From contig NW_026860290.1 of NCBI RefSeq assembly GCF_026571515.1, forward strand, positions 248,001-312,000: DNA of 64,000 nt. Reading direction: 5' to 3'. The notes beneath the pieces are model-generated. The model was not told the origin of the DNA, did not search any database, and worked only from the letters and a program-made list of their open reading frames with translations. The translations under genes were made by a program, and so were the position numbers. Below are positions 40,239 through 61,067 of this stretch, in pieces. Within the stretch, counting starts at the first letter, position 1. Every line of letters starts with the position of its first letter. Source of the stretch: Ruditapes philippinarum. Its lineage: Eukaryota.

Positions 40239-41223
40239 AAGTTATTTAATAATTTACCATTTTTCTTTTAGATTTCACACCTTTTAAGAAAATCTTTTTT
40301 GTTAAACAACCATTGAGGTATTTGATAAATGCCAAAGTGAAAATTGCCCCTTTCAGATGAGCCTACGCATAGATGTACTAATAAATTAAGTTTACTACAT
40401 TTTTTTCAGTGAAATTATTTGTTTCAGCAGAATAACTTGTGATGGATTAACATTGGATTTCAAATTCAGTGATTCAGGTTATATTTGACATGCACATATA
40501 TAATATCAAAACTAGAGAACACTTGTGACATCCAGATGATGTTGTGAAACAAAAAATATGTTCAATTTTCTCACATTTCAATCGACATGTTATTAAAAGA
40601 GTTATACCCCTTTTTTGTGAAACAGAATAAGTTAAATAGAATTTCAAGTTGGATGTGTTTATATGCATGCAAGTATATACTATCAAAACATAAGTCAAGT
40701 TAGATTTTCTCTCCAACCATCTTGTTGCATCCTTGATTTAATTTTTTTAATTGGTTTCTTTTAATCATTTTTTTTTAAATCTGACTTTACATTATGTCAC
40801 ATAAAATTTATTTAATTATCTTCTAAGACTATTTACAAATTTACTTACAGATCAAATTCAAAAACTGTATGTTAAGTTGTTAAAGTTACAGAGGAAAACA
40901 TTTGATGGAAAAGTTATTATCTGAGTTATTTGCGTCAATAAATTAATTAAATTTGCTGATCAATTCTATCTTTAAGAACTTGTGAAATAATATTTAGTAA
41001 GTGTGTGACTGAGTTACAGTGTATGTTCATCTTTCTCTATGTTAATTGATATAATGTTCCTTCATATGATTAAACAAATGTTTGAGTAGATAATTCCAAT
41101 TTCCTTTTACATTTTTTGGGAATTTTAATTCAGAAAAATGCATGTTAATTTAACCATAATAGTTTTGTAAAAGTCATAAATTTCATGTATATATGATAAT
41201 GTTCTGTTGTCGACACATGCTAT

Positions 41224-41428
41224 AATTTATTTGTTTCCTAGCTGAAACTAGAATTTGTTTGTTTCCAAGCTCATGCTAGCATCTGTTTGTTTCTAAACTC
41301 AATTTAGGAATTATTCATTTCCAGACTCATGCTAGGATTTATTCATTTTCTAGCTTATGCTTGGATTTATTCATCTCCAAACTCATGCTGGTATCTGTTT
41401 GTTTCCAAGCTCACACTTTGATTTGTTT
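41224..41428. repeat. 28-bp minisatellite, ~7 copies
   Basis: Unit ~ATTTGTTTGTTTCCAAGCTCATGCTAGG. Confidence 0.75.
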
Positions 41429-41459
41429 AATTGTGATATCTTCTTTTAAATCTGCCATG

Positions 41460-42005
41460 GAGTGTGTTTTGACATGCCCTGCCTCAGTGCCTTGGGTGTG
41501 TATTGCCTTGCCCTGCCTCAGTGACTTGGTTGTGAATTGCCTTGCCCTACCTCCACCTTTTGTGTCAAACGTTGCCCTGCCTCAGCGTTTTAGGTGTATA
41601 TTTCCCTGCCTTAGCACCTTGGAAGTGTATAACCTTTCCTTGCCTCAATGCCTTGGGTGTGTATTGCCCTACCGTACCTGAGCACCTAGGGTTTGTATTG
41701 CCCTGCCCTGCCTCAGTGATTTGGCTGTGTATTAATTACCCTGCCTTAGCAACTTGGGTGATATTGCCCTGCCCTGTCTCAGTGATTTAGGTGTATATTG
41801 CCCTTTCCTGCCTCAGCGACTTGGGTGTATATTGCCCTGTCCTGTCTCAGCAACTTAGGTGTGTATTGCCCTTTCTTGCCACAGCGCCTAAGGTGTGTAT
41901 TGCCCTGTCCTGGTGATCAGTGTGTATTGGCCTGCCTCAGTGACTTATGTGTTGTTACCCTGCGCTGTCTCAGTGATTGGGGTGCTTATTGCCCTGCCTC
42001 AGCAA
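41460..42005. repeat. 29-34-bp minisatellite, ~16-17 copies
   Basis: Unit ~TGCCCTGCCTCAGCGACTTGGGTGTGTAT(TGCCC). Confidence 0.85.
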
Positions 42006-42970
42006 ATTCATGTTAGAATTGATGAACTTGAACCAAAGGTTATTATATTCATTCTAAGTATATTTGAAAGAAATCAATTGAAAATGTATTTCCATTCTAT
42101 AGCTGGGGCAGTGTAAGTCTGTAAGGGTTTCTTCCCTTCAGAAAAATGATGCAGTTTTCCCATACATTTCAATTAACGCCAAGTTTTTTTCTTCCCATGT
42201 AAAAAATGCTGTGTTGTATTCCTCAATACTAAGGGGAAGGACCCCTTCCCAAAATGTGGGGCAAAAACATCTCTAATTTATAAACAAAACAACACCAGAT
42301 CTTGGTGAATGGGATTCCCAATTATTTAACTTGTTAAAGTGGATCATTCAGTTTTCATACTTTCATTTCTTAGTGCACCACAAGCCATCATGAATGACTC
42401 TTTAATTTAATATATTTACATGTATATCACTTGACATTCCCAACCCAATTCTAAATTACCGGCAGTAACAGACTTTTAGTAGATATTTTTTTTCTTCTAA
42501 TTTTATACTCTACATGGTACCTGTTAATAATTCATTAATCTATACTGTGTGACAACTGTACCAAGATAACCATCATTATATAGGTTAAACTGACTGTATA
42601 CCATACAATGACACATTGTTTTTATCTCATTACAAAATATAGTTCAATGGTAAAATTCCTAAACTTGACATGCCCTTGAACACTGCATTGGCGGACTATA
42701 TGCAATTTGACCTATTGTATGACCTTTTTCATTCACGTGTATAAACAGATGGTTGCTATAAATAGAAATATCAGGTCATGATTTTATTAAACTGTTATTG
42801 ACAGTACATAAGGTGAATTATAATGTCAAACACATGGTTAAATAAAAGTGTATCGATTTAAAAGAAAAAAAGAAAGCAGAGAAAAAGCAGGAAAAAGGCA
42901 CTTGTGTTGTCTGTAAAGTACACATAAAATAAATTAGGTGAAATATCAGTTGTATTAAATAAGGTAATTT

Positions 42971-43545
42971 CCCGGGTGTAGATATTCCGAGGTTTTTGGC
43001 TCAAAATCCTTGGAAAAAAACCTCGGAGTATTGGAACAAGAAAATGCAAAAGTTTGCTTTAAAAAAAAACCTTGGAAAAATTGGGAGAGGGCAAAAAAAA
43101 ACCTTGTAAAAAAAATTTCCGTGGTTAAAAACCTCGTAAAAAGTAAGACCTCGGAGTATTGGAACGATTTCCAAGGATTTCAGAAGAAAAACCTCGTAAA
43201 ATAATTTCCGAGGAATTTTTAAGAAAACCTTGTAAAATGAGTGACCTCGGAGTATTGGAACGATTTCCAAGGATTTCAGAATAAAAACCTCGTAAAATAA
43301 TTTCCGAGGAATTTTTAAGAAAACCTTGTAAAATGAGTGACCTCGGAGTATTGGAACGATTTCCAAGGATTTTTAAAGTGTTTCCGTGGTTTGTTTTCCA
43401 AGGTTTTCAAATGAAAACCTCGGAAAATTTCTCAAAAACCCAGAATACTGTAATATTTTCAGAGGATTCTTTCTATAGCATCAAGATCATTTTCCAAGGT
43501 TTATTTGAGAAAAACCTTGGAAATTTCTATAATATCCATGGAAAA
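42971..43545. repeat. Left TIR and subterminal repeat field, including a 96-bp tandem unit (starts 43147, 43243, 43339)
   Basis: Roughly 20 or more copies of AAACCT(T/C)G(G/T)AAA / TTTCC(A/G)AGG(T/A)TT in both orientations. Confidence 0.9.
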
Positions 43546-43763
43546 TCAGTAAATATTACAACCAATGAAATATTCTGAAAAAAAAACAACAATAATGTTG
43601 TCCTTTTAAAGACTTGGGAAATTTCTTAATGATAATACAGAGCAAAAAATGATCACATGACTCACTGAAACATTAATAGATGTCAAAGTGAAGTAAATAG
43701 AAATGCACTACAAATGAAAAGTTAAGTTAGTAGTCTTTAATGGTAAATATTAACAGTTAATGT

Positions 43764-46700
43764 TCAGTTAGAACTTTTTGGTTGATAGCTTGGTTTGAGT
43801 AGGTCAGCCAATTTGAGGTTGATCATTGCCTTTGATGCCCATGGCCATTTCTCCTGGACAATCTCTGAAATATATAGAAAAACATCTTTGTAGCAAGGAC
43901 ATCTATGATCTTTGTCATCCACTCAATAGTACTTTCTCACCCTAAAGCAGGAATTTTCCTTTTTAAATCATATAAGATAAACAGTATAATGGATAAACCA
44001 TTTGCTTCAGTTAAATTGAAATTTAATAGAAAACCCTTATTAAAAAATAATTTTTACAACTTTTGTTTTTTGAAAATCCTAGTGTTTTTCAGTTTTTTTT
44101 ATTTTACTATCTGTTTAGATTAATAAACTGAGATATATATTACTGTATAAAGCCTGCAGTTTCTCCTGGTTTTCCAAAGCAGGCTTGGCTGGTGTGTTTT
44201 TATTTGGAGCAAAACCAGAAAGGCTTCTTCCTTTCACTTCCTCCATGGTAAACATTTTTCTGAAAAGGGCCTTGGCTGCTTTTGAAAATGATTTTTCTGC
44301 ATGTGCAATAACCCTTAACTGTGCCTGTAATAATACAAAATGTCAAATTCAAAAGAAATGTGATAAAAGCTGAATTATCCTGATCAAGAACTATCATGCA
44401 TTTTAAGGTAAGCCTTTGGAATACATTACTATGAAAAGGCCTATCTACTCAAGCTTTTATCAAAAAGAAAAAAAACTTCAATATATTTAGCTGCTAAGCA
44501 TTGTTGAGAACCAGCAATTTCAAAATGTAAACAGAATATTTTTTTAAGTTCTCCATTAAATGTAAATCATATTAAAATTGTATTAAAACAATACCTTTGT
44601 GAAATTATTGTAAAATGTATTGGGATGCTCTTCAATTGATTCGACTAAAACTTCCATCTGAAATAAAAAGGTTGTTAAAATATATGTATTTCTATGCATA
44701 GTAATAAACAAGTAATATGTAAGTTACAACAGAAAATATAACTTTATAAAACAATCCTAGATGAATAAATTCGATTTATACAGCCTGCCTGTCTGCATTT
44801 ATTTCAGGTTTCCAGTAATGAAAAGCATTCACAATGTAGGAGGGCAATAATAAAACTTTAAAAGATTTCTTGTACAAAAAAGATATCAGAAATAAAAATT
44901 ACCTCACTGGCTTGGTCTGCAGGTTTGGTTTCAGTAAAGAACTTGTTTGTCACTGATTCCCCTATCTGTCTGTCAACATTCTTGCTCTGTAAAAAAAGGT
45001 TTAACCCTTGAAATTTTTAGGACAACTAAAAACTGAAAAATTGGTGAAAAGAAATTAAATCTTTGACATCAGTGAAAATTATATTGTATAATTTCAGCGC
45101 AAAATTATCAAATTTAATTTAACTTTCCATTCCAAAGAATATAATTTGCTTTCTTTGCTTTTTTGGAACTAGTATTATAAGTTATAAAGAATGAGTATTT
45201 AGAGTGGATGTCAAAATACTGCTTTGTTTACATACTGCTATTTTATGACACAATATTTCACTTCCAATTGCCAACATGCTTTAAATTCATTACAATATAA
45301 AAAACAAAACAATTTTCACCCTTTTTAGAAAAAAAAATTGTATATTCATTTCTGAGAAATAATGTGCCTTTAAAGAAAAAATCTGTCCATGTTCTTTTTT
45401 ACTTTTAAAAAGCTCAGTCTAGTCACAAGTATTGTATTGTTTTGTCCAAATTTGAGTCAAATAAATAAATTAATGACAAAGTAATGAAAATGTAAGCAAA
45501 ATTGAATCACATAACATAATGGTCAAGATCATTTACAGGTCAAGGTCATATCAAAATATTACAACATGTTCATTGAAAACAAGTGTTGCTTTTTCAAGAA
45601 TGAATCAAACCTGTTTATTAATCATTAAAGTTATGACTATTTAGACAAAATTCAAGGTCATTTAAAGCTCTTTGTAATGATCAATACAATGCTTTAGCAG
45701 GTCTTGTTTCAAGTAATAAGATTATCCATTTATCAATTACAAAGTAAGAGCTTACCAAAGCAATAACAACATCTACATAACTATAGCAATATTTCTATAA
45801 TTTTTTTCTGTGAAACAGTCTAAGCTAAAAATTAGATTATGAAATTGTGACATGATGTTTAAATTACAGTCAAAATAATCATCATGGATAAACCAGAATA
45901 AATTTTCTTTTACCTCATCCTTTTGATTTTCAAAGAGCCATGAAATTGAACTTCTTAAATTCTGGATCTCTGTCATAGCTCTACCTTCCAGCCATAAAAC
46001 ATACTGCCGCAAGTTGGCAACTTCTTGTTTTAAGTGAGAACAACCGTCACATTCTCTTTGCTGTTCAAGTGGCTGGTTAAGAAGATCCACCATGCCAATA
46101 CCCTGATGTGAAACAACATCTATGCTTTTGCGCACAGTGCTGAAAACTGATTCAGGACCACTGAAAATAGAGTTAAATAAACAAATGAAAAACATTTCTT
46201 TTTAACACTCTGTTACATCAACTAATACATTTATAGTTCTGTCTATACATGGATAAATAGATTTCCTTCAGAAAAATGCTACATCAAATTCTATTAACAA
46301 AGGTTGGTCTTGGGAACTGTCCATCTTTAATAACTATTGTAAATAAGTTAATCTAGTTTTATTTAGCAATATGGTGTTGTACGAGGAATTAACCCAAAAC
46401 CCTTTGATTATATATACATGTAGTAGGCAGACTGAATTAATAACTATAATACTGATCACAAATCAATTTTTAATAAACAATGACATTATAAGAATAAGGT
46501 CTTTACTGAAAATAATCAGAACTAAAAAAAATTTAAATCTAAATTCATTTCTCTTATTAGTTATAAATATTTTTGACAGGTTATATGGCCATATATAAAT
46601 GGCTGTTAGGAAATATAGCCAGAGTAGCTAAGCGAGGGTTATATTGCAAACAACTGTTTATATAATTTGTCAGGAATATTTATAACAAATTTATGATACA

Positions 46701-49700
46701 GCAAACTTTTTCAGAAAAAGTGAGATTTCTTAGAAAACTGACAGCAACAGTGTATATAAAACTATATTTAAAAATGTCTCTATTATCCAATGCAAATTGA
46801 TGTTACAAACATGCAGTATTATAAAAGGTATTAAATCGGTACTTACCCAATATCTACAGCTGAACTGGTACTGGAAGAAAGTTGATGACATCCCTCTGTT
46901 GACCTACTTGTTTCTATTTGAAATGGAATTGAGACTTCCCTAAAATTTTAAAATCATATAGCTTTATACAGGACCTCACATGACTTGACATAAAATATAG
47001 AATTATACTCTAGGAGCAAAAGAAATTGTTATAAAGCTAACTATCAGAGGACAAGTATATATTCAACACCAAAAGTGAGATTCTATTTACTTCATAACCA
47101 AACAAATTGAAATTATGAATGTACTGAAAATAATTTGTTTTGACATCTTGATTTCTTTGTTCTTTGTCTAAGGAAATGTATTGGCAAAAATTATGTGATA
47201 ACAATGGTGTATCAGTTGGTTGTACTACAAAAAATACATAAACATTGAAAGCAAGTGATATCATAACAACATTTAATATCTTGTCTTTTCATACTTAATT
47301 TTCTAATCTGCAGACTTATAGTCTAGTTGTATTCATTTTAATGAGATCAGAAAAGAGCAACAACTTACCCAATATCTAAACCTGAATTGGTATTAGAAAT
47401 AAGTGGTGGGCATGGCTCTGCAGATCTTTCAATTTCTGTTTGTAATGGAAGTGTTTCATCCCTAGAATTTTAGAATCACATAATTTAATACTTGCTATAT
47501 GATCTCGGATGACTCATCATGAGTGAACACATAATTATACCCCCGCACAACAAAGTTGTAAGGGGGGTATACTGGAATCAGCTTGTCCGTCCGTCCGGCT
47601 GTCCGTCCGGCCGTCCGTCCGTCCGGCCGTCGTTTTTTTCTTGTCCGCCCAATAACTTAAGATTCCTTTGACCCTTAGTCTTCATATTTGGCATGGAGGT
47701 TAGTCATGATTAGTAGATGACCCCTATCGATTTTGAGGTCACTAGGTCAAAGGTCAAGGTCACAGGGGCCTTGACTTCAAAAAGCTTGTCCGCCCAATAA
47801 CTTAAGATTCCTTTAACCCTTAGTCTTCATATTTGGCATGGAGGTTAGTCATGATTAGTAGATGACCCCTATTGATTTTGAGGTCACTAGGTCAAAGGTC
47901 AAGGTCACAGGGGCCTTGACTTCAAAAAGCTTGTCCGCCCAATAACTTAAGATTCCTTTGACCCTTAGTCTTCATATTTGGCATGGAGTTTAGTCATGAT
48001 AAGTAGATGACCCCTATTGATTTTGAGGTCACTAGGTCAAAGGTCAAGGTCACAGGGGCCTTGACTTCAAAAAGCTTGTCCGCCCAATAACTTAAGATTC
48101 CTTTGACCCTTAGTCTTCATATTTGGCATGGAGGTTAGTCATGATTAGTAGATGACCCCTATTGATTTTGAGGTCACCAGGTCAAAGGTCAAGGTCACAG
48201 GGGCCTTGACTTCAAAAAGCTTGTCCGCCCAATAACTTAAGATTCCTTTGACCTACAGTCGTCATATTTGGCATGGAGGTTAGTCATGATAAGTAGATGA
48301 CCCCTATTGATTTTGAGGTCACCAGGTCAAAGGTCAAGGTCACAGGGACTTTGACTTCAAAAACTTTGTCTGCCCAATAACTTTAGATTCCTTTGACCCA
48401 CAGTCTTCATATTTGACATGGATGTTGATCATGATTAGTAGATGACCCCTTTTGATTTTGAGGTCACTGGATCAAAGGTCAAGGTCATAGGGACTTTGAC
48501 TTCAAAAAGTTTGTCCACCCATTAACTTAAGATTCCTTTGACCCACAGTCTTCATATTTGGTATGGATGTTGATCATGACTATAAGGTGACCCCTATCGA
48601 TTTTGAAGTCACTGGGTCAAAGGTCAAGGTCACAGGGACCTTGACAAAAAAAGCTTTTCTTCTCAATTGCTAAAGAATGTCCTGTCCGCAATGTATTTAT
48701 TTTGACATTTTCACATTTGAAGCATGTAGAATACATAACTTAGCAATGCACTGGCTTAGTAACCTCAGATTTGGCAGGGAGGTTGTCCTTGAGCTCTAAA
48801 TGGCCACTGTTGATTCTGACAAAGTGGTATGCGGGGGTATTCACGCCATGATAGTGGCAGTTCTAGTTTAAATTATTTTGTAACAAAAAATTGATAAATG
48901 ATAAAATTGCACATTATATGACAAAGAATGTCATATACTTCTATCACATGACTAAACTTAATGAATTAATGAAAATAAATTTGTTTTCATTTTGGTATGC
49001 CTCCAGATTGATACTCAATTTTAATGAAATTGAGAAAATGTATTTAAAAGTAAAATATTCTTAAAAGAAGATATACAATGTAAAATATGTTATTCATTAT
49101 GCAAATAGGTTTCAAGATAATTATTTTGGTTTGGTTTTACAGCCCTTAAGGTCACATAGGGCTAAAACTGGAAATATGATTTTGGCTAAATGATGGTTCC
49201 AATTCTGTTACCTCAACCCTTAAGTTTTTTTTTCTTTAATTTTGATAATCCTATTAATCATCGCATTAAAAAATCAACAACTTACCCAGTATTTATAGCT
49301 GAATTAGTACTAGTATTAAATGGATGACTTGACTCTGTTGATTTTCTAATTTCTGTAAGTAATGGAGGCGTTACATCCCTAAAATTGAAAATTTTTCCTT
49401 TTTTAAAATTCATTCATAGTAAAAAAAAATCAAATAAAAACATTCTAGTTTGTAAAAACTTTTCATCAATCCATTGTGTCATGAATATCCATACATTTAC
49501 TTTGAAATCAAAATTCTACTTTTCAAATTGAACTCCCCTTGCATTAATACAGACTTGTCAAATAAATGAGTATTTTGGTGCTAAGAGCATTGGTGACATA
49601 ATTTGCTCTTATACAAATAATCAATTCTTTGAATCTATGCTTTATCCTTCGAGTGTCTAGAATACAGGACAGATCTAAACATTAATCTATTTCCACATGT

Positions 49701-52700
49701 TTAACACTAATTATTATCTACAAATTGGTAGAGAAACCCTGAAAATGAGTGTGAGATTGTCAACGTCTCTGCTGAATGTGTATTTTCAGTGTAGTTAAAT
49801 GTATTTCAAAACTGATCATAAATCAATATAGACATATTAATAAACTGATTTACACAGAATTACTATATATATATGAGCCGCGTTATGACAAAACCAACAT
49901 AGTGTGTTTGCGACCAGCATGGATCGAGACCAGCCTGAGCATCCACGCAGTCTGATCAGGATCCATGCTGTTCGCTTACCAACCCTATTATAAGTAGATA
50001 AACTGATAGCGAACAGCATGGATCCTGATCAGACTGCCCAGATGCGCAGGCTGGTCTGGATACATGCTGGTCGCAAACACACTTTGTTGGTTTTGTCGTG
50101 ACGCGGCTCATATATGCTTGTAAACTCTGTCATTGGATGAAACCAATATTATCAGATACACAATTACTTGTTTTTACAAACCTTGAATGTGTGTTCTGAC
50201 TTCCTGTGTGAACCTGCTCTTTCAATTTAGCTAGTTGCAGTTCCTCACCAGCTTTTTCCAAATCATACTTAAATTAGAAAAAAAATCAGTAAAATGAAAA
50301 AAGTAACAATTATATAGCAAGCTGTCCATGGGACCGTCCAGAAAATTACAGTAAATGCATCTGTCATTTAATAAGAAGTCATTTTCTAACATTATAGTTT
50401 ACATTTTTATTGAGAAAAGTAAAATTGTTCCACATAACAGGGAAGAAATATGATTATAACACCAATATCAAATAGGATTCTTTACCATTTTATATGAAAA
50501 GATAAGAATTGTAAGAGAACTTTGTGCATGACTATGGAAATGGCAAAGTTTAGGTTATAATGTTACTAGAGAAGCAGTTTCATAAAATTAAAAAAAATAA
50601 AAACTGAAGTTTATTACACACCTTCTTCTTTTTCTCAGTGATAGCTCTTGGCTTGGATGACTTTCTTTTCTTATTTTCTGCAGTACATAGTGCAGTATTT
50701 GCACTGGCTGTTTCTTCTGTTACAGTTTCAGACCTCTGGACATTTGGGCAGTATTTTTTTACTAAGTCAATAAATTTTGGGCTGTCAATTTCCTTCTCTA
50801 ATATTTTCTTAGATTCCTCAGTGCCATCTGAAAATCATCAATTTTTAATAGTCAATTTCTATATCATATTTTTTCCAATAATGATGCAAAATATTAAACT
50901 GCCTAAGAGAAATTGTTTTCGAAAATTTGTTCAGATTAGAAAATTCTAAAATTATGATGAAAACGTGCCAAGATTTGACAATGACAGCACCCCATAACAC
51001 TGGCTACTTATTTAATTTGGGACTGAAAAAGATGCTTAGTTTTGAAGCAATACAGGATGTATGGAAAAAATACATAAAAAAATAGTCAATGAAAACGAAA
51101 GTGCCTAGCATTATTAGCTGTAAGAAAATTTTTGACAGTTACTTATTGTTGTAATGTTACTTAACTCTTTAAACATTGAACGTTTGTGCAGAGTCAACTT
51201 TGCCTTTTAAAAAAAATATAATTAAGAAAAATACATATAGTGCTTTGCAAAAGTATGATTTAGTATGTATTATTTCAGGACACTGTTATAATATCAAATG
51301 CCATAGTATTTCTTTACACACCTTGTATTATCATTGGAATTATTGTTTGCATTGTACATTACAGAGAAATAAAATAAAAAATTAAGTTGTGACTTAATTA
51401 TAAAATGAATATTGAGTGAATCATTATGACATGACACTCACTCACACACTGACATCCCAGTTAAGAAGTAGAGAAGCTACTTAAAGTCAAGAGTCAGCTT
51501 AATAATTCTTCACAGTTTGGTTCAAGGAGTGACAGATCTTCTCCTACTTATCTTTCAAGCTTATGCAATGTAAAGGAGGTATATTTCAACAGTCTTTTTT
51601 CTGATTATATTATCATGGCAAGCTGTTTTAAATGAAAAATAAAAGATATCCGGTATATTATAATATATTGTACAGAATTAAAGTGAAGTATATTTTAATA
51701 GAAGAAATTTGTTACGCTTAAATACACTTCTTGCAGATTCGTTGTAAATTGATATTAAGGGTGTAACAGTTACTGTTATACCGATATATTGTAATATGAT
51801 TATATGAAAAAATTACTTTCGTACCACGGTACGATTTTTGGAAGACCGGTATTTTATAAAAATCTTAATTTTCATTTAATCACCTTCTTATTTCGTACAA
51901 ATTTCGCATAAAATCTTTTATTGGTGAATTTTATTGGCGTCAACGTAAGATAAAAATATCCGACAACTAAGTACACTTAAAAGTAAGTAAGCGGCCGCAT
52001 AATTTACATAAGCGGCCCAGATGTGAAAGGTCACGTGCCACTAGTTTTGTTTATCAAATTGTGTGACACTTTACTTTCTATTTATTCCTTACATTTTTAT
52101 TAAGTTTCTACTAAGAATATATACATATAATAATAACAATATATAATGTTACTCTATCTTTACATCGAAACATATACCCGACAATATGTATTGCAATATA
52201 TTGCAATACGCTTTGTCAAAATGGCAATATATTGCAATACGTTTTTACCGTATTGTTACACCCCAAATTGATATAATACAAATGTCTTTCTGTTGATGCT
52301 TTTTGTTAATCGTCAATAAAATTTGAAATAAAAACGTGTTAACTTATTATCTTCAGCTTCAAATTAGTTGTAGGTGGTCATTTATCAAATTTGAATGATT
52401 GCCTAAATCATAATTATCACCTGTTAATCGGTACTCTTAACATACACATGGTAATTGATTGGTGATAATAGCAGTCCATTAATGAGCTTTTACAATTTCA
52501 ATATCCAAAAATGTAATAATAATTTGAGAAAACATCTTAAGTCCATATATTTATTATGTGGTTCCAACAATAAAGAGTGATAAAACAAACCAATATATTT
52601 ATACATTGAAAAGTAGGCCGAGTTGACCAGGCTTAGTTGGAATAGGGCCGAGCTGACCCCGATGCATCTAAATGCATATTTTAAAATCTTATCTTTACTT

Positions 52701-53402
52701 ACCATTATCAAAACTTTAACTGTAAATGGCCAAATAACAGCAATATATATTAATTCTTTGTTGCACACACATCGTCACATGTCTAATAAATTTAATTAAA
52801 AAAATGTCCGTATTCAACTGTAACGTAATATCTATATTCAGTAATTTAAGTGTTATCGCTTCAAATTCTACCTTTAAAAGCATTTTGCTAAATTGTTAAA
52901 TACTTAAACTTAATGTGTCAATGGTATTTTGTCAACATCTTAAGAATAAAACCGTTAAAATCTCAAATTTAACTTTTTATAATCCCAATTAACAGACGCT
53001 TGTTATGATTAAACGTTTGGCTAAAACCTGTTCAGATTCCGGGTATTTAAATGGTGACGGTAAATTAGCAACCAAATTAGTAAAACTTCCACGGCAGCAT
53101 TTTAACACATTGTTACAAAGGTATATGTACATTATGCTCGGAAGTCTAGAAGTCTATCATTAAAAAAAAAAAGATAAAGAAAGCACTACACAGAGTTGGT
53201 AAAAATGTCACTTACCGCCAAGTTTTGCAATGACCCCTTCAACAATCCCAAATCTTGCAAGTTTTACTTTCACGGTCTCTCCATCACGATATTCATGATA
53301 TGCCTTTCTTGGCTCCACTATTTGTCGAATTCTTACAGCATTTCCAGTCACTGGGTTGTCATTAATCCATATCATTAACGCAAAGCTTTCGGGTGTTGCC
53401 AT
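43764..53402 (-). CDS. Transposon-encoded coiled-coil and BEN-domain protein; 11 exons, 477 aa
   Basis: Exons 53402-53216, 50827-50622, 50267-50182, 49378-49286, 47461-47369, 46939-46847, 46160-45914, 44986-44903, 44657-44595, 44324-44144, 43864-43764 (1434 nt, GT-AG, in phase, no stops). NLS-like KKRKSSKPRAITEKKKK; CDGC followed by a coiled coil. The C-terminus SFSKAAKALFRKMFTMEEVKGRSLSGFAPNKNTPAKPALENQEKLQALYKIVQEKWPWASKAMINLKLADLL fits the BEN pattern. Confidence 0.82.
47535..48868 (+). mobile_element. Complete young Helentron-associated HINE (pearl/DTC84-like) with 7 x 145-bp internal satellite, nested in BEN-gene intron 4
   Basis: 5' TTATACCCCCGC sub-TIR with inverted partner GGGGGGTATA, then a (GTCC)n tract. 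Units start at 47641, 47786, 47931, 48076, 48221, 48366 and 48511. The 3' end has sub-TIR GCGGGGGTAT, hairpin GCCATGATAGTGGC and terminal CTAGTT. Confidence 0.9.
49874..50110. mobile_element. Palindromic MITE family A, copy 8 (full length, 237 bp; BEN-gene intron 3)
   Basis: TGAGCCGCGTTATGACAAAACCAAC...GTTGGTTTTGTCGTGACGCGGCTCA within a (TA)n context. Confidence 0.9.
51756..52266. mobile_element. 511-bp hAT-type MITE with 8-bp TSD (BEN-gene intron 1)
   Basis: TAAGGGTGTAACA...TGTTACACCCCAA, flanked by ATTGATAT at 51748-55 and 52267-74; internal TATTGCAATA repeats. Confidence 0.85.
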
Positions 53403-53491
53403 TTTCACTAAGTAATTTCAAATTTTCTCATCAAATATAAATATACCTCTTTCAAATGTCCGAGCAATTTCATTGGATAGATCTTTTTATC

Positions 53492-53611
53492 AGCATTAAT
53501 CGGTTACAGGCGAAAGTTCACGAAGTTTTCCCAGCATGAGTCACATATACAATAAGCATCAATCGGATACCGGCGAAAGTTTACGAGGTTTTCCCAGAAT
53601 GTCAAACATAT
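53492..53611. promoter_or_regulatory. Duplicated 57-bp module (period 63) in the putative bidirectional promoter of the transposon
   Basis: AGCATTAATCGGTTACAGGCGAAAGTTCACGAAGTTTTCCCAGCATG / AGCATCAATCGGATACCGGCGAAAGTTTACGAGGTTTTCCCAGAATG, between the head-to-head ATGs at 53402 and 54247. TTCCCAG(C/A)ATG resembles the Staf/ZNF143 core. Promoter function is inferred. Confidence 0.5.
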
Positions 53612-54246
53612 GGTATTACGTATATGTGGTCTAAATGCGCTCACCAATGCACAGCTTCCTGATTTATGTTTGCGCTTGGCGGTGATTATTATACAAAATT
53701 CCAGTGGTTTTTAATTTGGAAAACAAGGTGCGAAAATATTGATTAAAGTTAATGTATATACATGGAACCCACCAGTGTCTAAGCTGAAAAAGGTACAGTG
53801 AATGATAATATACATTTGTTTTTCATTTTTGAAATATGATAGAATTTTTACAACAACAAGTGGCAAAAGTTTAGCCCTGAGTACATGTATTTAATTGTCC
53901 AACTAATGATCAATCAATATACAGATTAAGGATCTTTTTTTATTATTATTATTATAATTATTATTTTTATTAATGCTCCCGAAGGAAGGCATATAAGTTT
54001 GAACTGTCCACCCGTCATTCCGACCGAAAACTTTCATGTTCGAACTGTTGAACATTTCCTTTGTAACAGAAGGATTCATTCAAAATGAAGCTACGCTTCT
54101 ATTTTTTAGAGAGCGATTTTATAAATGCACATTTTTGGTCTAATGGTCTAATACGGTACAGTACATTGCTAGTAATTAGAAAGTCATTTGCACGTGTTTA
54201 TTAGGTTTATGTTTCACACAGTCGTGATTCTTTTTATTCAGCTAAA

Positions 54247-57200
54247 ATGGAAGAAGATGATTTGTTAGGTTGCAAACACACTGACAAACAATGGATATGT
54301 CCGCTGGAGTCTTGCAGGAAAGTCTTAACAAGAAAGCAGACCCTCAAGTCACACCTTCGCACCATTCACAACATACACGGTATGAAAGATGACATTTTGA
54401 TATGACGTCGATTTAGATCACCATTAAGTTTTTGGTTATCTCTACTTATTCATGTCTTTATTTTGTATTCTTCATTATAATGATTAGTTTTGCTGTTAGC
54501 GAGTAGTATTTATAGATATTTATTTTCTTATATTTTCCCAAACAGAAGTCAAAGTTTACAGCATTGCAGAAATACTTTGGTCGATTTGAATGTAAGAAAT
54601 CGACTATGATTTTTAAACATGTATTTTCTACTGACGGACACTAGTTACATTGTCATATTTGGATGGCAATTTGCGATAACTTACAATTCTACGGATCTTA
54701 TCGTATATATTTTGAAATGCAAATAATATGAAATTAGGAGAAAACTTTGAAATATAGCCCCATTTTGCACTGATGTTTAACAATCCGTAGTTTTGATTTT
54801 GCGGAAATTTAAGCGTGTGCATTCTATCATACTAGTACTTATCAGCGAGTTGAAGTGGAAGATTATCTTATTTGCATATAAGCTGTCAAGACTCATTATA
54901 ATGTAAGAGTTCGTAATTTAATGTTTACAGAAGTAAAGTCAAGTGTCTGCCAGTATTGCTTTTTAGTGCATCGGAGAGTTAATTACTTTACTTCATTTCG
55001 AATTGCAATTTTCCTTTCATTCTTTATATCATTTTATTATGTTCCATGTTTCAAAACATAAAAATAGAGAGTTTCTAAGACTACTGTTAAAATAAACAGC
55101 AGGAAAACAAACATCAATTTATACGTAGTGTATTCGGGTTTATCTAAAAATACGTAATGTCGGACATCATTATGCTTTATAATTTTAATAAGTAACCACA
55201 ATACAAATGTAGAAAAAAGGAAAATTTATACATATTTAACAGAAAAAACAATGTTTTGAGAAGAACATGTTTGCTGAAACAAAATAACTTGATGTTCTCT
55301 CGAAATAAAGAAATCCCCAATTACGATATTTTTTCAGTAATTTTTTGACATCAAAATTATTAATTTATGCCGCTAGAAAATGAATTGTATAGCTGATTAG
55401 TCTTATACTGTTGTTTGTAAGGAACTTGCTAAGGGACCATAGATTGATGCGCATATAAATTATTTGTTACACCTTTGAAAAATATTTTCATATTATCCGA
55501 GACGTGTTCTTTCGGCATATTATCTCAATTTTATATGATCTACTTGTTTAAAAATCGGTAAATTTTACGGTATATTGAAAAATAATAATCTAATATTCCG
55601 TCATATTTGGCCCGTTTCTGTTTTACATTCTTAGAGGCAAACAGTATGTACATTCGGATAACACTAAGGGGGAAAACAATTTTAAAGGCCGTTACTGGAT
55701 CGGAAATATATGCCACAATCTCCGGCCCCTTAAGTTCTTATGGTAACTGACTGGCCAACGACTGTTGCATTATGAGTGTGTCACAGGGTAGAATTATAAA
55801 CTACAACTACTGGCGAAGGATCGTCAATTTAATTGTAATATATACGAAAAAAAAAGCCTAAAAACATAAATACATGATTATAATACAAGTTAATCAAAAG
55901 ATACATAAAATACACTGTTAGATAAACAAATAAAATTTTTATATTAAGTACGCTCAGTATATCTATACTCGTAAGAGAATAAAGATAAAGTGACCTGAAG
56001 AAGGAAAGTTCGCGGGAATTCGGAAGAAAGGAAATGTTAAAAACAATGTAAAACTTTCTCTCAAATCTCTTTCATACAACGTACAAAACGATTGGACAAA
56101 CAAAAACAGTTCACAAAATTGCACGAGATACAGACATAGTTGAATTGTTTCGGACGTTTCCGTGAATTTCCGCTTATAAGCGTACGTTACGGAACCAACC
56201 GATACAATACAATAGCAGACGATAACAGACGCCACGGACACAAACGGTAATCGACGCATGCGCGGACATTAACTATACTTTTCCCGCGACTAAATGACGA
56301 ACAGTGCACGGCAAAATGAACAATTAATATAACAAATAAATCGACCCGTGACATTCCGACATTTTATTTACCTATAAAACAGCTGTCTCAAAACTGCAGT
56401 ACCCATATAATTAAAAATCAGAACTGCATTTGAAAATAACATGTTTAACAGTAGTTTCTACTGTGTATATGTGTCTCCCGATTATATGAAACATTAAAAA
56501 TAAAGGTATATACCCAAAATAATAACTTTAAAGGTATAGGCTCAATATAACTGAAAATAAAGGTATAAGCACAGTTTAACTGATTTTAATGGTGTATTAC
56601 TGAAAATAAAGGTATAAGCTCAGTTCATTTTAATTTAAAGGTTTGAACTCAGTTTATATGAAATTAAAGGTATACCCCCAGTTTATCACGGGTCAATTTG
56701 TTTGAACATTTCCTGACATGACTTTAATATTTAACAAATATTAAACCATTTTTTACGGAATCAACATGTTCAGATGTGTGTTTAAATATAACACAATTCT
56801 GACGTGTGATTTGAGTATTTTCATAGGGATATAAACATGTGAAAACCAAGGTCGCGGAAATAGGTGACAAACGAAAAAAATCCGATTTTCGGACGACATT
56901 CATTTGTGAAAATCATCAATTAATTTCACAAAATGAAAAATGTACATGTTTTACATCTACTGTATATAAATTTACGTTGTTATAGATTAGTGAACAACTT
57001 TTCGATTATCATAATTTTAGGTGAATTAATAAAGTTATCAAAGTATACAGTATATATGTAGTAAATATATTCAAAAGTTTCATTTTCTTGGACAGCTGTA
57101 GAATGATACAGAGTCTTGTGGCTTTTCTGTTGATACATTTTATTACCAAACATTAATTTTGTACATGTGCAAAGTAATTTAAAGTATACTTCCATTTTAA

Positions 57201-60200
57201 AGAATATTTGCTTTTTTCGTTACAGCTGGCGACAGTCCAAAGAGGTACAAGCTTTATGAGTCAAACGAGGGAGTAAATGTCCCAAGAACAACTTTATTCA
57301 GAATATCAAAGAGGTTAGATATTTTTTGACTTTCCAAGAAGATAAAGAACACACATTATTGAAAATAAAATAAAACTTAATTGATTTTGTGTTGTATTGA
57401 AAATTAATTTTTGTACTAATAAATGTACGCAAGTGGGTGATAATGGCTATACATCTTTTTTGAAATGTATGTTTAATTCCAGAATGGATCATTCTACCTT
57501 TGCATGAATATTTATTCAATATTGAACATTTTTTTAGGGAAGAGGATTCAGTTCATCCTGGGACTGGAGAGAGTCATCTAGAAAAAAATGATACAGTGGA
57601 TTTGTCAACAAATGCTGAATGTAGCGAAGCTTGTGAAGAAGTTGATTATACAGTTTTGGATATGGATATAGAAAAATCACAAGATTCACAAGGCAATGCA
57701 AGTTCAGATGTGGACACAGCAGAACAATTATCATACACTAATAATCAAAGTGACGCCATATTAGACATCAACGAATATGCAGCTAAAACCTCTATTCCTC
57801 TTTATGTTATACCACCATCTTCAAACTGTTACCAAAGTAGTATTACAAAATTTGATCACGTAATGTCACTGTGTGCTATAGCTGCTAGACACAACATTTC
57901 TGATACATTGCTGAAAGATATTGTTGGGCTTATACAAATGCATTTACCTGAGCAAAATATAGGAGTTACAGATATAAATGAGTTAAAGGGAGCTTGTGGC
58001 TTTGAAAAGGATTACCTGAAATATCATACATATTGTGAAAATTGCAAGAAAATTTTTGAAGACCATTTAGATGAATGTCAAACTCCAAATTGTGATGGCA
58101 AAAAGTCTGATAATTTATGCAAGAAGTACTTTATTACAAGCAATTTAGGGATGCAGATAAAAGAAATCATTCAAAGAAAAGAAATTTGGGACGCACTATG
58201 TGACTTTATAGATCATCATGACAGATCTAGCATTGCAGATGTAAGAAGTGGAAGTGGATACAAGGAACTACAAAAAGAAGGAGGATTTCTAGATTCAAAT
58301 AGAAATATCACATTATCAATGTTTATTGATGGTGTTCCACTTTTTAAAAGTTCTGGAGTATCCATGTGGCCTGTGTATTTTATCATAAATGAGATACCAC
58401 CAAAGGAACGTTTTCTTAAAAAGAATATGCTTCTGTGGGGAATTTGGCAAGGAACAGGCAAACCAAAAATGACAATGTTTTTAACACCATTAGTTACAGA
58501 TCTCCTTATGCTCCACAATGACGGTGTTAACATTGTGAAAAATGGTACATCATATTTGGTTAAAGCTAAACTTATTATAGTTACAATGGATTTGCAGGCT
58601 AGAGCATATGTGACCAATATGACTCAGCACAATGGGGAATTTTCGTGCTTATACTGTACTGCCAGTGGGAAAGTTGTGAAGAGCGGTGCAGGAAACTGTC
58701 GAACTTTTCCCTTCAAAGATTATGATAAAAGAACAGATGATATGATTAAAGAAGCATCATTGACAGCGTCACAAACTGGCAAACGTTACCATGGTTTTTT
58801 TGGAGAAAGTATTTTAAGTTGCCTTCCATATTTTTCACTCTCAAAGAACATTGTTATTGATTATATGCATGGCACACTCCTCGGAGTAACAAAGAAATTC
58901 CTTGATATGTGGTTTGATTCCAAATATAAAGACACACCTCATTACATAGGAGACAGGGTAAAAGTTCTTGACAATCTAATGAAAGCAATATGTCCACCAT
59001 ATCTAGTTCATCGCTCCCCAAGAGTCTTATCAAATACATATTCTCACTGGAAAGCATCAGAATTAAGGAACTGGCTTCTGTTTTACTCTGTGCCATTACT
59101 GAAAGGAATTCTGCCAGAAGTATATCTGAAGCATTATGCATGTCTTGTAGAAGGAACATACATTTTGCTTAGTGAGGGAATAGCAAACCAGGACTTGAAT
59201 CGTGCTGATCTGCTACTAAAATTATTTGTTCAAAACATGGAAAATCTTTATGGCGAAGAAACGTTAAGTCTAAATATCCACAACCTTACTCATTCTGTTG
59301 ATATTGTACAACAATGGGGACCTCTATGGGGGTATTCTTGTTTTCCTTTTGAGTCATTTAATGGAGAAATAAAGCAATCTGTTCATGGAACTGGAAATGT
59401 TTGTAGACAGATCTTCTGGTCATTTCAGGCACAAAAACGGCTTGCACAGTTGTCAAGTAGTATGCCAGACTGCATGTCAAAAGATTTCATTCAGTCACTA
59501 GAAATTCGAAAAAGACAGTCATCTAGAACTGAAGCATATCAGTGCTGGATTATAAAGTTTTCCAATAATACCAGTGGATTCAAACAGGATATTTTGGCAA
59601 AAATTGAGAAAGAAATTGGCAATGCTGATTTCTCTACAGCCTCAAAAATAGTGAGAAATGGGTATACAATGTACACAAAAAATTCTAAAAAAGTTAAACA
59701 GCAAAACTCTTATACTATCAAATTGAATAACAGGGATATTTATGCTTTAGAAACAGAGCATTTTATAGTGCAAAATGATGCAGAAAGGAAAGTGTTTGCA
59801 GTTGGGACAGCACTGGTTAAGACTGGGTCTACTTTGGAAGGAACAGTGCCGCATCTAATACAAGTAACTAGAAGGTTTGTATACATTTAAAATGTTTCAT
59901 CTGAATTCACAGATTCATTTCAAATCATGTTTCAGAATTTCAAATTCTGTATTGTTAAAAGTCTATACTATTTGTTTGGTTCTGCCTACATTTGAGTCAA
60001 TCAATAGGAAAACAAATGTTAATTCTACATTCTTAAATATTCAGTTTACTCTGCTTTAAATTGAGCCCTCATATTTACTGTTTTATCTAAATTAATATTG
60101 GTGAGACTGCTTAAAATTGTTGATTCAAAGATTTAACCGTTACACTGTGAAACTTTTTTAATGCTTTTAATATGTTTCAAATTACATATTTGTAATTTTT

Positions 60201-60322
60201 CTACCTACAGGAAGGGAATGGAAGTGATACCTGCAGAACAATTACTTGAGCCACTAATAGTGATGACAAATGGAACAGATATTGCAGTAGCAAGCTTTCC
60301 AAACACATATGAAAGAGATTAG
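54247..60322 (+). CDS. CACTA/EnSpm-type DDE transposase (TnpD/Transposase_21-like) with N-terminal C2H2 zinc finger; 4 exons, 889 aa
   Basis: Exons 54247-54379 (WICPLESCRKVLTRKQTLKSHLRTIH, C-x4-C-x12-H-x4-H), 57226-57313 (KRYKLY...VPRTTLFR), 57538-59874 (bulk of ORF 57500-59890) and 60211-60322 (...FPNTYERD*); 2670 nt in phase. Motifs: YCENC...CQTPNC, FIDGVPLFKSS, MDLQARA, NGEFSCLYC, IDYMHGTLLGV, WKASELRNWLLFYS, HNLTH, WGPLWGYSCFPFESFNG. AATAAA at 60414. Confidence 0.92.
56497..56685. repeat. ~30-bp diverged tandem repeat in transposase intron 1
   Basis: Recurring AAATAAAGGTATAAGCTCAGTTTAACTG-like unit, ~6-7 copies. Confidence 0.65.
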
Positions 60323-60699: not shown

Positions 60700-61067
60700 C
60701 ATTTTCCGAGATGAAATTTAGCTAAGTACAATTTTCCGAGGTGATTTCCAAGCTAAAAAATGGCAAAGTGTTTCAAACAAATTTGACGTAAATTTTCTAA
60801 GTTCTTTTACGAGCAAAAAAATGACAAAGTCCTTCATTTCCAAGCTTTTTCCGAGCTGTTTTTTGGCAGAGTATGTAAATTCCGAGACAGTTTCCAAGGT
60901 TTTCTTTATTTCCAAGGTTTTTTATACAAAAACCTTGGAAAAAATTTCCAAGGTTTTAAGAAAAACCTTGGAATTAAAAAAAAACCTTGTAAAACTGGTT
61001 TATTTCCAAGGTTTTTGAAGCAGTTTCCGTGGTTTTTTTCATAAACCTCGGAAAATCTACACCCGGG
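60700..61067. repeat. Right subterminal repeat field and TIR
   Basis: About a dozen or more TTTCC(A/G)AG(G)/AAACCTTGGAAA motifs, ending in AAACCTCGGAAAATCTACACCCGGG. Confidence 0.9.

Follow-up and report, generated by a model that had tools for sequence, protein, structure and literature searches.

A BEN-domain gene of the clam Ruditapes philippinarum lies inside a CACTA/EnSpm-type transposon and may encode a TnpA-like accessory protein

The analysed stretch of DNA, here referred to as the window, covers 64,000 nucleotides of Ruditapes philippinarum contig NW_026860290.1. It contains a gene whose protein ends in a BEN domain, and this gene is enclosed by the terminal inverted repeats of an 18,097-bp DNA transposon of the CACTA/EnSpm type. 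Its 11-exon frame is open and stands head-to-head with an open transposase gene, arrays of a short motif occupy both ends of the element, and the same pair of genes recurs in related elements. With a probability of roughly 65%, we consider the BEN gene to be the second gene of a two-gene CACTA/EnSpm-type transposon and its protein to be a TnpA-like, end-binding accessory factor.

Results

The BEN gene and its exons

The first-pass annotation had described three small exons, numbers 9–11 in Table 1, which join into a BEN-like unit that is absent from the list of open reading frames. In fact, no open reading frame of at least 100 aa spans them, and their joining is borne out by the splice signals (AG acceptors on all three, GT donors on the first two), by the frame and by an exact NCBI match. 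The domain has stood, with one correction: the three exons are only the C-terminal end of a much larger minus-strand gene with 11 exons and 477 aa, whose coding sequence runs from 53402 to 43764. The spliced translation is identical, letter for letter, to NCBI XP_060607334 (LOC132759560, R. philippinarum, 477 aa), already modelled by NCBI as an 'uncharacterized' protein.

A contig of run X1, which was taken to be RNA by guess, crosses the 43864–44144 joint with 0 differences, and contigs of this run cross three further joints upstream, four in all. The joints 44595/44324 and 44903/44657 are absent from the RNA contigs, which read into both introns flanking exon 9, and the two RNA runs of raw reads have a depth under 1 on the BEN gene exons. 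We accepted the 44595/44324 joint because of its splice signals, the frame, the NCBI model and the motif that is conserved across it in the homologues. The two retained introns and the near-zero raw depth nevertheless count against the reading of the protein as an accessory factor.

Exons 4–6 are tandem duplicates, each 93 nt long and all in the same phase. Together with their flanks they are 68–74% alike, and they extend the linker; most of the aligned full-length homologues have 310–450 aa, compared with 477 aa in the clam protein. The introns hold further repeats. A nested repeat at 47540–48656, with a hairpin, a GTCC-type microsatellite and seven 145-bp units (94% match), resembles bivalve tandem-repeat MITEs. 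An inverted repeat of 123 nt (87% complementary) at 49854–50130 is MITE-like, and 45124–45387 and 46444–46839, with very high depth in all four runs, are likely nested high-copy repeats. Such nested insertions may explain why the clam element measures 18 kb and its relatives 8.6–12 kb.

Table 1. Features of the transposon and its two genes (positions in the window).
Feature	Position	Strand	Basis or remark
Left target-site duplication, TT	42969–42970		same 2 bases outside both termini
Left terminal inverted repeat, starts CCC	42971–42998	+	28 nt, 93% complementary to 61040–61067
Left subterminal array, 21 copies of CC[TA][CT]G[GT]AA	42985–43543		copies point both ways; a 96-bp x2.6 tandem is part of it
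BEN gene exon 11: last BEN helices and stop codon	43764–43864	-	RNA joint, NCBI protein mapping
BEN gene exon 10: BEN core	44144–44324	-	Pfam, RNA joint
BEN gene exon 9: stretch leading into the BEN domain	44595–44657	-	frame, homologues, structure; neither joint in RNA
BEN gene exon 8: linker	44903–44986	-	RNA, spliced frame
BEN gene exon 7: coiled coil (predicted, about residues 274–346)	45914–46160	-	RNA, AlphaFold model
BEN gene exons 4–6 (49378–49286, 47461–47369, 46939–46847): low-confidence linker	46847–49378	-	repeat family, model
BEN gene exons 2–3 (50827–50622, 50267–50182): helices and basic stretch after Tudor-like domain	50182–50827	-	model
BEN gene exon 1: translation start, Tudor-like beta domain	53216–53402	-	structure comparison
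Spacer between start codons, 844 bp	53403–54246		end-motif copy at 53581; putative bidirectional promoter
Transposase exon 1: C2H2-type zinc finger	54247–54379	+	homologues, Pfam (below cut-off, E=0.001)
Transposase exon 2	57226–57313	+	inferred by homology
Transposase exon 3: Transposase_21/DUF1258, D, D, CxxC, HxxxH, E motifs	57538–59874	+	splice sites inferred
Transposase last exon	60211–60322	+	inferred by homology
Right subterminal array, 10 copies of CC[TA][CT]G[GT]AA	60734–61053		
Right terminal inverted repeat, ends GGG	61040–61067	-	pairs with 42971–42998
Right target-site duplication, TT	61068–61069		matches left TT

The BEN domain and the architecture of the protein

The BEN assignment was confirmed by the Pfam profile, by language-model features and by the predicted fold, including two of the checks that had been named in advance (the profile, and AlphaFold with Foldseek). 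Pfam BEN (PF10523) matches residues 399–456 of the whole protein with 24.2 bits (E=4.1e-05), a marginal pass of the cut-off of 23.2, and exon 10 by itself matches it with E=0.0068. The Pfam core is encoded by the last two exons, and the 63-nt exon 9 adds only about 8 residues to the structural match. The AlphaFold model of the whole protein, built on an alignment of 16 sequences, has three confident parts, namely a beta domain (about residues 5–65), a long helix (274–346) and a helical domain (about 380–470). Among 48,161 solved chains, the top five matches are all BEN domains (Z 7.5–10.3; unrelated rows reach at most 6.9), with BEND6 as the best (Z 10.3, rmsd 2.5 over 89 residues), and a Z near 10 can also be reached by helical folds through a common arrangement. 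Foldseek with the same model also ranked BEND6 first (E=0.006) and gave nothing at E<=0.001. Identity to the known host BEN proteins over the domain is only 14–22%, and a sequence search of the solved structures, BEN chains included, gave no match.

BEN is the sole Pfam family found in the whole protein, with neither a Tudor nor a TnpA-type family. The N-terminal beta domain of the whole-protein model compares weakly with the Tudor domains of ARID4B and JMJD2C (Z 6.5–6.6), in the range of common arrangements, and we describe it as weakly Tudor-like in the model. A chordate cluster named 'BEND6 isoform X4' aligns to this domain with a TM of 0.59, below the naming threshold. The word-index protein search, with the exon and with residues 365–477, returned XP_060607334 alone, and the exhaustive protein search found 59 relatives.

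The enclosing element and its transposase

The two genes are arranged with their start codons 844 bp apart, facing away from each other. On the plus strand, an open reading frame matches Transposase_21 (Pfam E=8e-15), and the four-exon frame stays open in 9 splice combinations of 855–889 aa, three of its exons coming from comparison with homologues and its exact splice form being a prediction. The residues D289, D376, C395xxC398, H606xxxH610 and E630 are conserved across 31 aligned sequences; D, D and E together with C(2)C and H(3-4)H are motifs of the superfamily according to the available part of PMC12730594. A transposase 99% identical to this one is present in another record, and a search of viral contigs found no relative.

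The element was assigned to CACTA/EnSpm because it combines Transposase_21 and its motifs with CCC termini and a 2-bp target duplication, within the 2–3 bp typical of the group. In the partial text of PMC1636069, animal CACTA elements have CCC termini and 2-bp duplications, and the termini of the CACTA group as a whole are CCC (animals) or CAC. The TT duplication of the clam element is only 2 bp long and may have arisen by chance, which would also suit a resident clam BEN gene that happens to be bracketed by the remnants of separate transposons. However, the termini match, the same motif occurs at both ends, and the pairing of the two genes recurs in three other bivalves and in many metagenomic loci, so that such a coincidence is very improbable. 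Among the related transposase loci (numbered with L), L007 has an alike target duplication; none was recovered at L047/48/49/53, L034, L051, L052, L067 and L045.

Several other features were observed around the element. At 43540–43803, the unspliced run X16 has sequences 90–95% alike at far greater depth than it has on the exons, and such sequences also occur in the RNA run X21; they may represent a non-autonomous family sharing the left end, the depth not being a copy number. Tandem arrays of 28-bp and 34-bp units lie at 41212–41995, about 1 kb outside the left terminus, and are unrelated to the motif of the element. A search of 40000–64000 against Rfam found nothing.

Pairing of the two genes in other genomes

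Nineteen other clusters of BEN relatives were looked up and 18 of them could be named, mostly as bivalves, together with an abalone, a crinoid and a bird; the protein search with the transposase gave 64 relatives, of which 10 clusters were looked up. In three of the 18 named clusters the BEN homologue has an accession consecutive with that of a transposase homologue, on equally long contigs: Mya arenaria (MAR_006784/MAR_006785), Dreissena polymorpha (KAH3879829/KAH3879830) and Pecten maximus (LOC117318748/LOC117318747). Consecutive accessions carry no information on orientation or termini. The other 15 have no partner within the partial list (10 of 64 transposase clusters), which says little.

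We then counted the pairing from the transposase side in metagenomes, using the best 80 of 190 transposase loci (45 DNA clusters). A first BEN profile, built from protein relatives only and with the loci excluded, gave 12 matches at E<=0.15, of which 11 are upstream on the opposite strand and one is upstream on the same strand; nothing matched in the 157,811 bp downstream or in the reversed ORFs of the loci. Pfam BEN matched 10 of the 12 candidate ORFs, six above the cut-off, and the candidates of L051 and L067 gave no Pfam match. With second-round profiles, partly seeded with the loci themselves, 12 of the 18 clusters that have at least 3 kb upstream contain a divergent BEN or N-terminal match. 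BLASTP adds L058 and L064, which brings the divergent partner to 14 of 18 clusters; no partner was found in L002, L019/L054, L024 and L063. The sole exception to the divergent layout is a BEN fragment at L003:1634–1861, which lies immediately upstream of a transposase truncated at its 5' end, shares its strand and looks rearranged.

The head-to-head layout is fixed across transposases that are only about 30–50% identical. Moreover, partner identity follows transposase identity (Spearman 0.53 for 12 pairs, one per cluster; 0 of 5000 permutations), and the two trees have two well-supported groups in common and differ in the rest, the BEN alignment being short. These comparisons indicate that the partner and the transposase co-descend. 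Since the transposase also co-descends with the motif and has a C2H2 finger of its own, the correlation is silent on which of the two proteins reads the arrays.

The conservation also bears on whether the BEN gene might be a host factor captured long ago, now carried along as a passenger that plays no part in transposition. Extra genes do occur in CACTA elements, for example the TET/JBP cargo of fungal EnSpm (PMC12730594, in part), a bird protein described below combines the same N-terminal domain with BEN, and the RNA support for the clam gene is thin. Useless cargo, however, is expected to decay, and here we find an open 11-exon frame, a fixed head-to-head layout and correlated divergence. 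We regard a passenger as improbable; like the chance bracketing, it fits the conservation poorly.

Some loci have peculiarities of their own. In the clade of L047, L052, L058, L059 and L064, the partner, an upstream ORF on the minus strand, contains a ubiquitin-like domain, which separates the N-terminal domain from the part with the coiled coil and BEN, with Pfam ubiquitin above the cut-off in L047, L059 and L064. One 8.6-kb two-gene element occurs with four different flanks in L047, L048, L049 and L053, without a matching target duplication, which reflects either mobility or assembly chimerism. A long, near-perfect inverted duplication surrounds the transposase at L041:6832–19557 and is a fold-back element or an assembly artefact.

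Motif arrays at the element ends

In the clam element, 31 of the 40 matches to CC[TA][CT]G[GT]AA in the window fall within 968 bp at the two ends, often as inverted pairs 20–23 bp apart. This motif, which is only partly palindromic, was defined after inspecting the ends; unbiased 8-mer counts agree, with 13 vs 0 and 10 vs 0 occurrences for two of the top words. The arrays of the relatives consist of short palindromes at one or both element ends: TCATGA (L022, L031, L034), CCATGG (L015, L024, L042), TGATCA (L047, L052, L058, L059), AGATCT (L037, L051, L067, L068), TCTAGA (L007) and ACATG[TC] (L045). Their spacings tend to lie near multiples of the helical turn (58 of 124 distinct spacings, 37 expected, 20 in anti-phase); this count covers 19 arrays from 13 loci that were picked for having arrays and are related, and p-values are thus optimistic.

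According to the accessible text of PMC8887127, NACC1/2 bind ACATGT, NACC2 favours paired sites at a distance of 10 nt, and the Insensitive dimer binds to TTCCAATTGGAA. At the level of sequence, the end arrays of the relatives appear similar to these known BEN sites. The Insensitive half-site (of TTCCAATTGGAA) occurs 20 times in the clam element ends, at about 21/kb vs 0.8 elsewhere, and the commonest variants of the clam motif deviate from it. Binding of the BEN domain to the element ends is likely rather than certain. One copy of the end motif lies between the clam start codons; an exact copy between the arrays exists in only 1 of 7 relatives, so the case for autoregulation is weak.

These data have to be weighed against another reading, in which the BEN gene is an integral transposon gene that acts on chromatin or transcription (by anti-silencing, repression, insulation or Tudor-guided target choice) and the transposase alone reads the arrays. 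The resemblance of the N-terminal domain to the ARID4/KDM4 Tudor domains (Z about 6.5), the C2H2 finger of the transposase and the single motif copy between the start codons would agree with it, and known BEN proteins work in transcription or as boundary factors (PMC11472053, in part). The Tudor match, on the other hand, is within the range of common arrangements, and the end arrays of the relatives have the look of palindromic BEN sites spaced in helical phase. We judge this reading unlikely, though it is the strongest alternative, and a chromatin role may coexist with end binding, as it does for TnpA.

Discussion

The first-pass annotation took BEN for a DNA-binding and chromatin module, and on the domain it was right. 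The position of the gene between transposon inverted repeats and its pairing with a transposase in many related elements mean, however, that the ordinary host chromatin role which this implied is not the reading we prefer. If the BEN protein is the end-binding accessory factor that we favour, a shared bidirectional promoter would drive both genes, and the coiled coil would oligomerise the protein, as the N-terminal coiled coil does in BANP (PMC11472053, in part). Its BEN domains could then coat the phased motifs in both end arrays, and the protein would pair the two ends and aid cutting by the transposase at the CCC termini. It may also regulate or shield the chromatin of the element.

In maize, TnpA binds arrays of a repeated motif inside both ends of En/Spm. 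It is needed for transposition, acts on the promoter of the element and is contacted by TnpD (PMC1636069, available part). The clam element is like En/Spm (TnpD and TnpA) in having arrays inside both ends and a transposase with a partner that would bind DNA. Unlike it, the clam element has CCC rather than CACTA ends, encodes a BEN domain, and uses two head-to-head genes where En/Spm makes TnpA and TnpD by differential splicing of a single transcript. The BEN protein is encoded by the element and conserved with the transposase; it is neither a splice form of the transposase transcript nor homologous to TnpA. By analogy, its mode of action may nevertheless resemble that of TnpA.

Three other known systems can be compared. 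First, the animal TRC elements (SmTRC1 and insect relatives) share Transposase_21, CCC termini, a 2-bp direct repeat and spliced genes with the clam element. In the text available to us (PMC1636069), SmTRC1 makes its second products by alternatively splicing a single unit, and no homology is recognised for these products, whereas the second gene of the clam is separate and divergent, of the Tudor-like/coiled-coil/BEN type, and conserved across elements. Second, PIF/Harbinger elements (a transposase with Myb/SANT) also have a separate accessory DNA-binding gene, which has yielded host transcription factors, MSANTD (PMC2836001 and PMC9392472, both in part). They differ in the transposase superfamily and in the DNA-binding fold, and canonical Harbinger duplications are 3 bp (PMC12730594, in part). 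Third, the BEN-solo host factors (BEND6, BANP, Insensitive, Bsg25A) and NACC1/2 have the BEN fold, with a coiled coil upstream as in BANP; the clam BEN protein is distinguished from BEN-solo factors by being encoded within a mobile element, with a domain identity of 14–22%.

Among the top-listed papers of our literature search we found no link between BEN and CACTA, nor does one appear in the available text of PMC6004678, PMC10789644, PMC5704228 and PMC11601247; the last, the Codebook preprint, gives a list of DNA-binding domains derived from transposons and, as far as its accessible part goes, handles BEN apart. The components are known, and the combination of a BEN gene with a CACTA transposase is apparently new; a prior description is possible, and elements of this kind may already be among the Repbase entries. 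For SmTRC1, its authors went no further than postulating a function like that of TnpA (PMC1636069, in part). The conserved divergent BEN protein is a concrete candidate for the missing accessory protein of animal CACTA/EnSpm elements, and each end array predicts the binding site of the BEN domain of its own element. This protein also offers an origin for the many lineage-specific 'uncharacterized' BEN genes of invertebrates, a part of which are likely to be transposon genes that were annotated as belonging to the host, and it may do so for BEND6-like chromatin factors as well.

A wider proposal is that BEN is the end-recognition module of a large branch of animal CACTA elements, and that host Tudor-like/coiled-coil/BEN factors (BEND6-like proteins and XP_027553333) are domesticated accessory genes, as MSANTD is from Harbinger. 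We put it forward tentatively, as possible and on balance doubtful. If true, the end arrays would form a natural library of BEN-motif pairs, and BEN sites would have a route for spreading through animal genomes. The bird protein XP_027553333 (P0058, Neopelma chrysocephalum) combines the same kind of N-terminal domain (E=1e-12, test of 10 proteins) with a coiled-coil-like stretch and BEN, and is by its sequence a candidate domesticated gene. A distant second member of the partner family, P0009 (LOC132723396), is present in R. philippinarum itself, and its model stops just before the BEN core.
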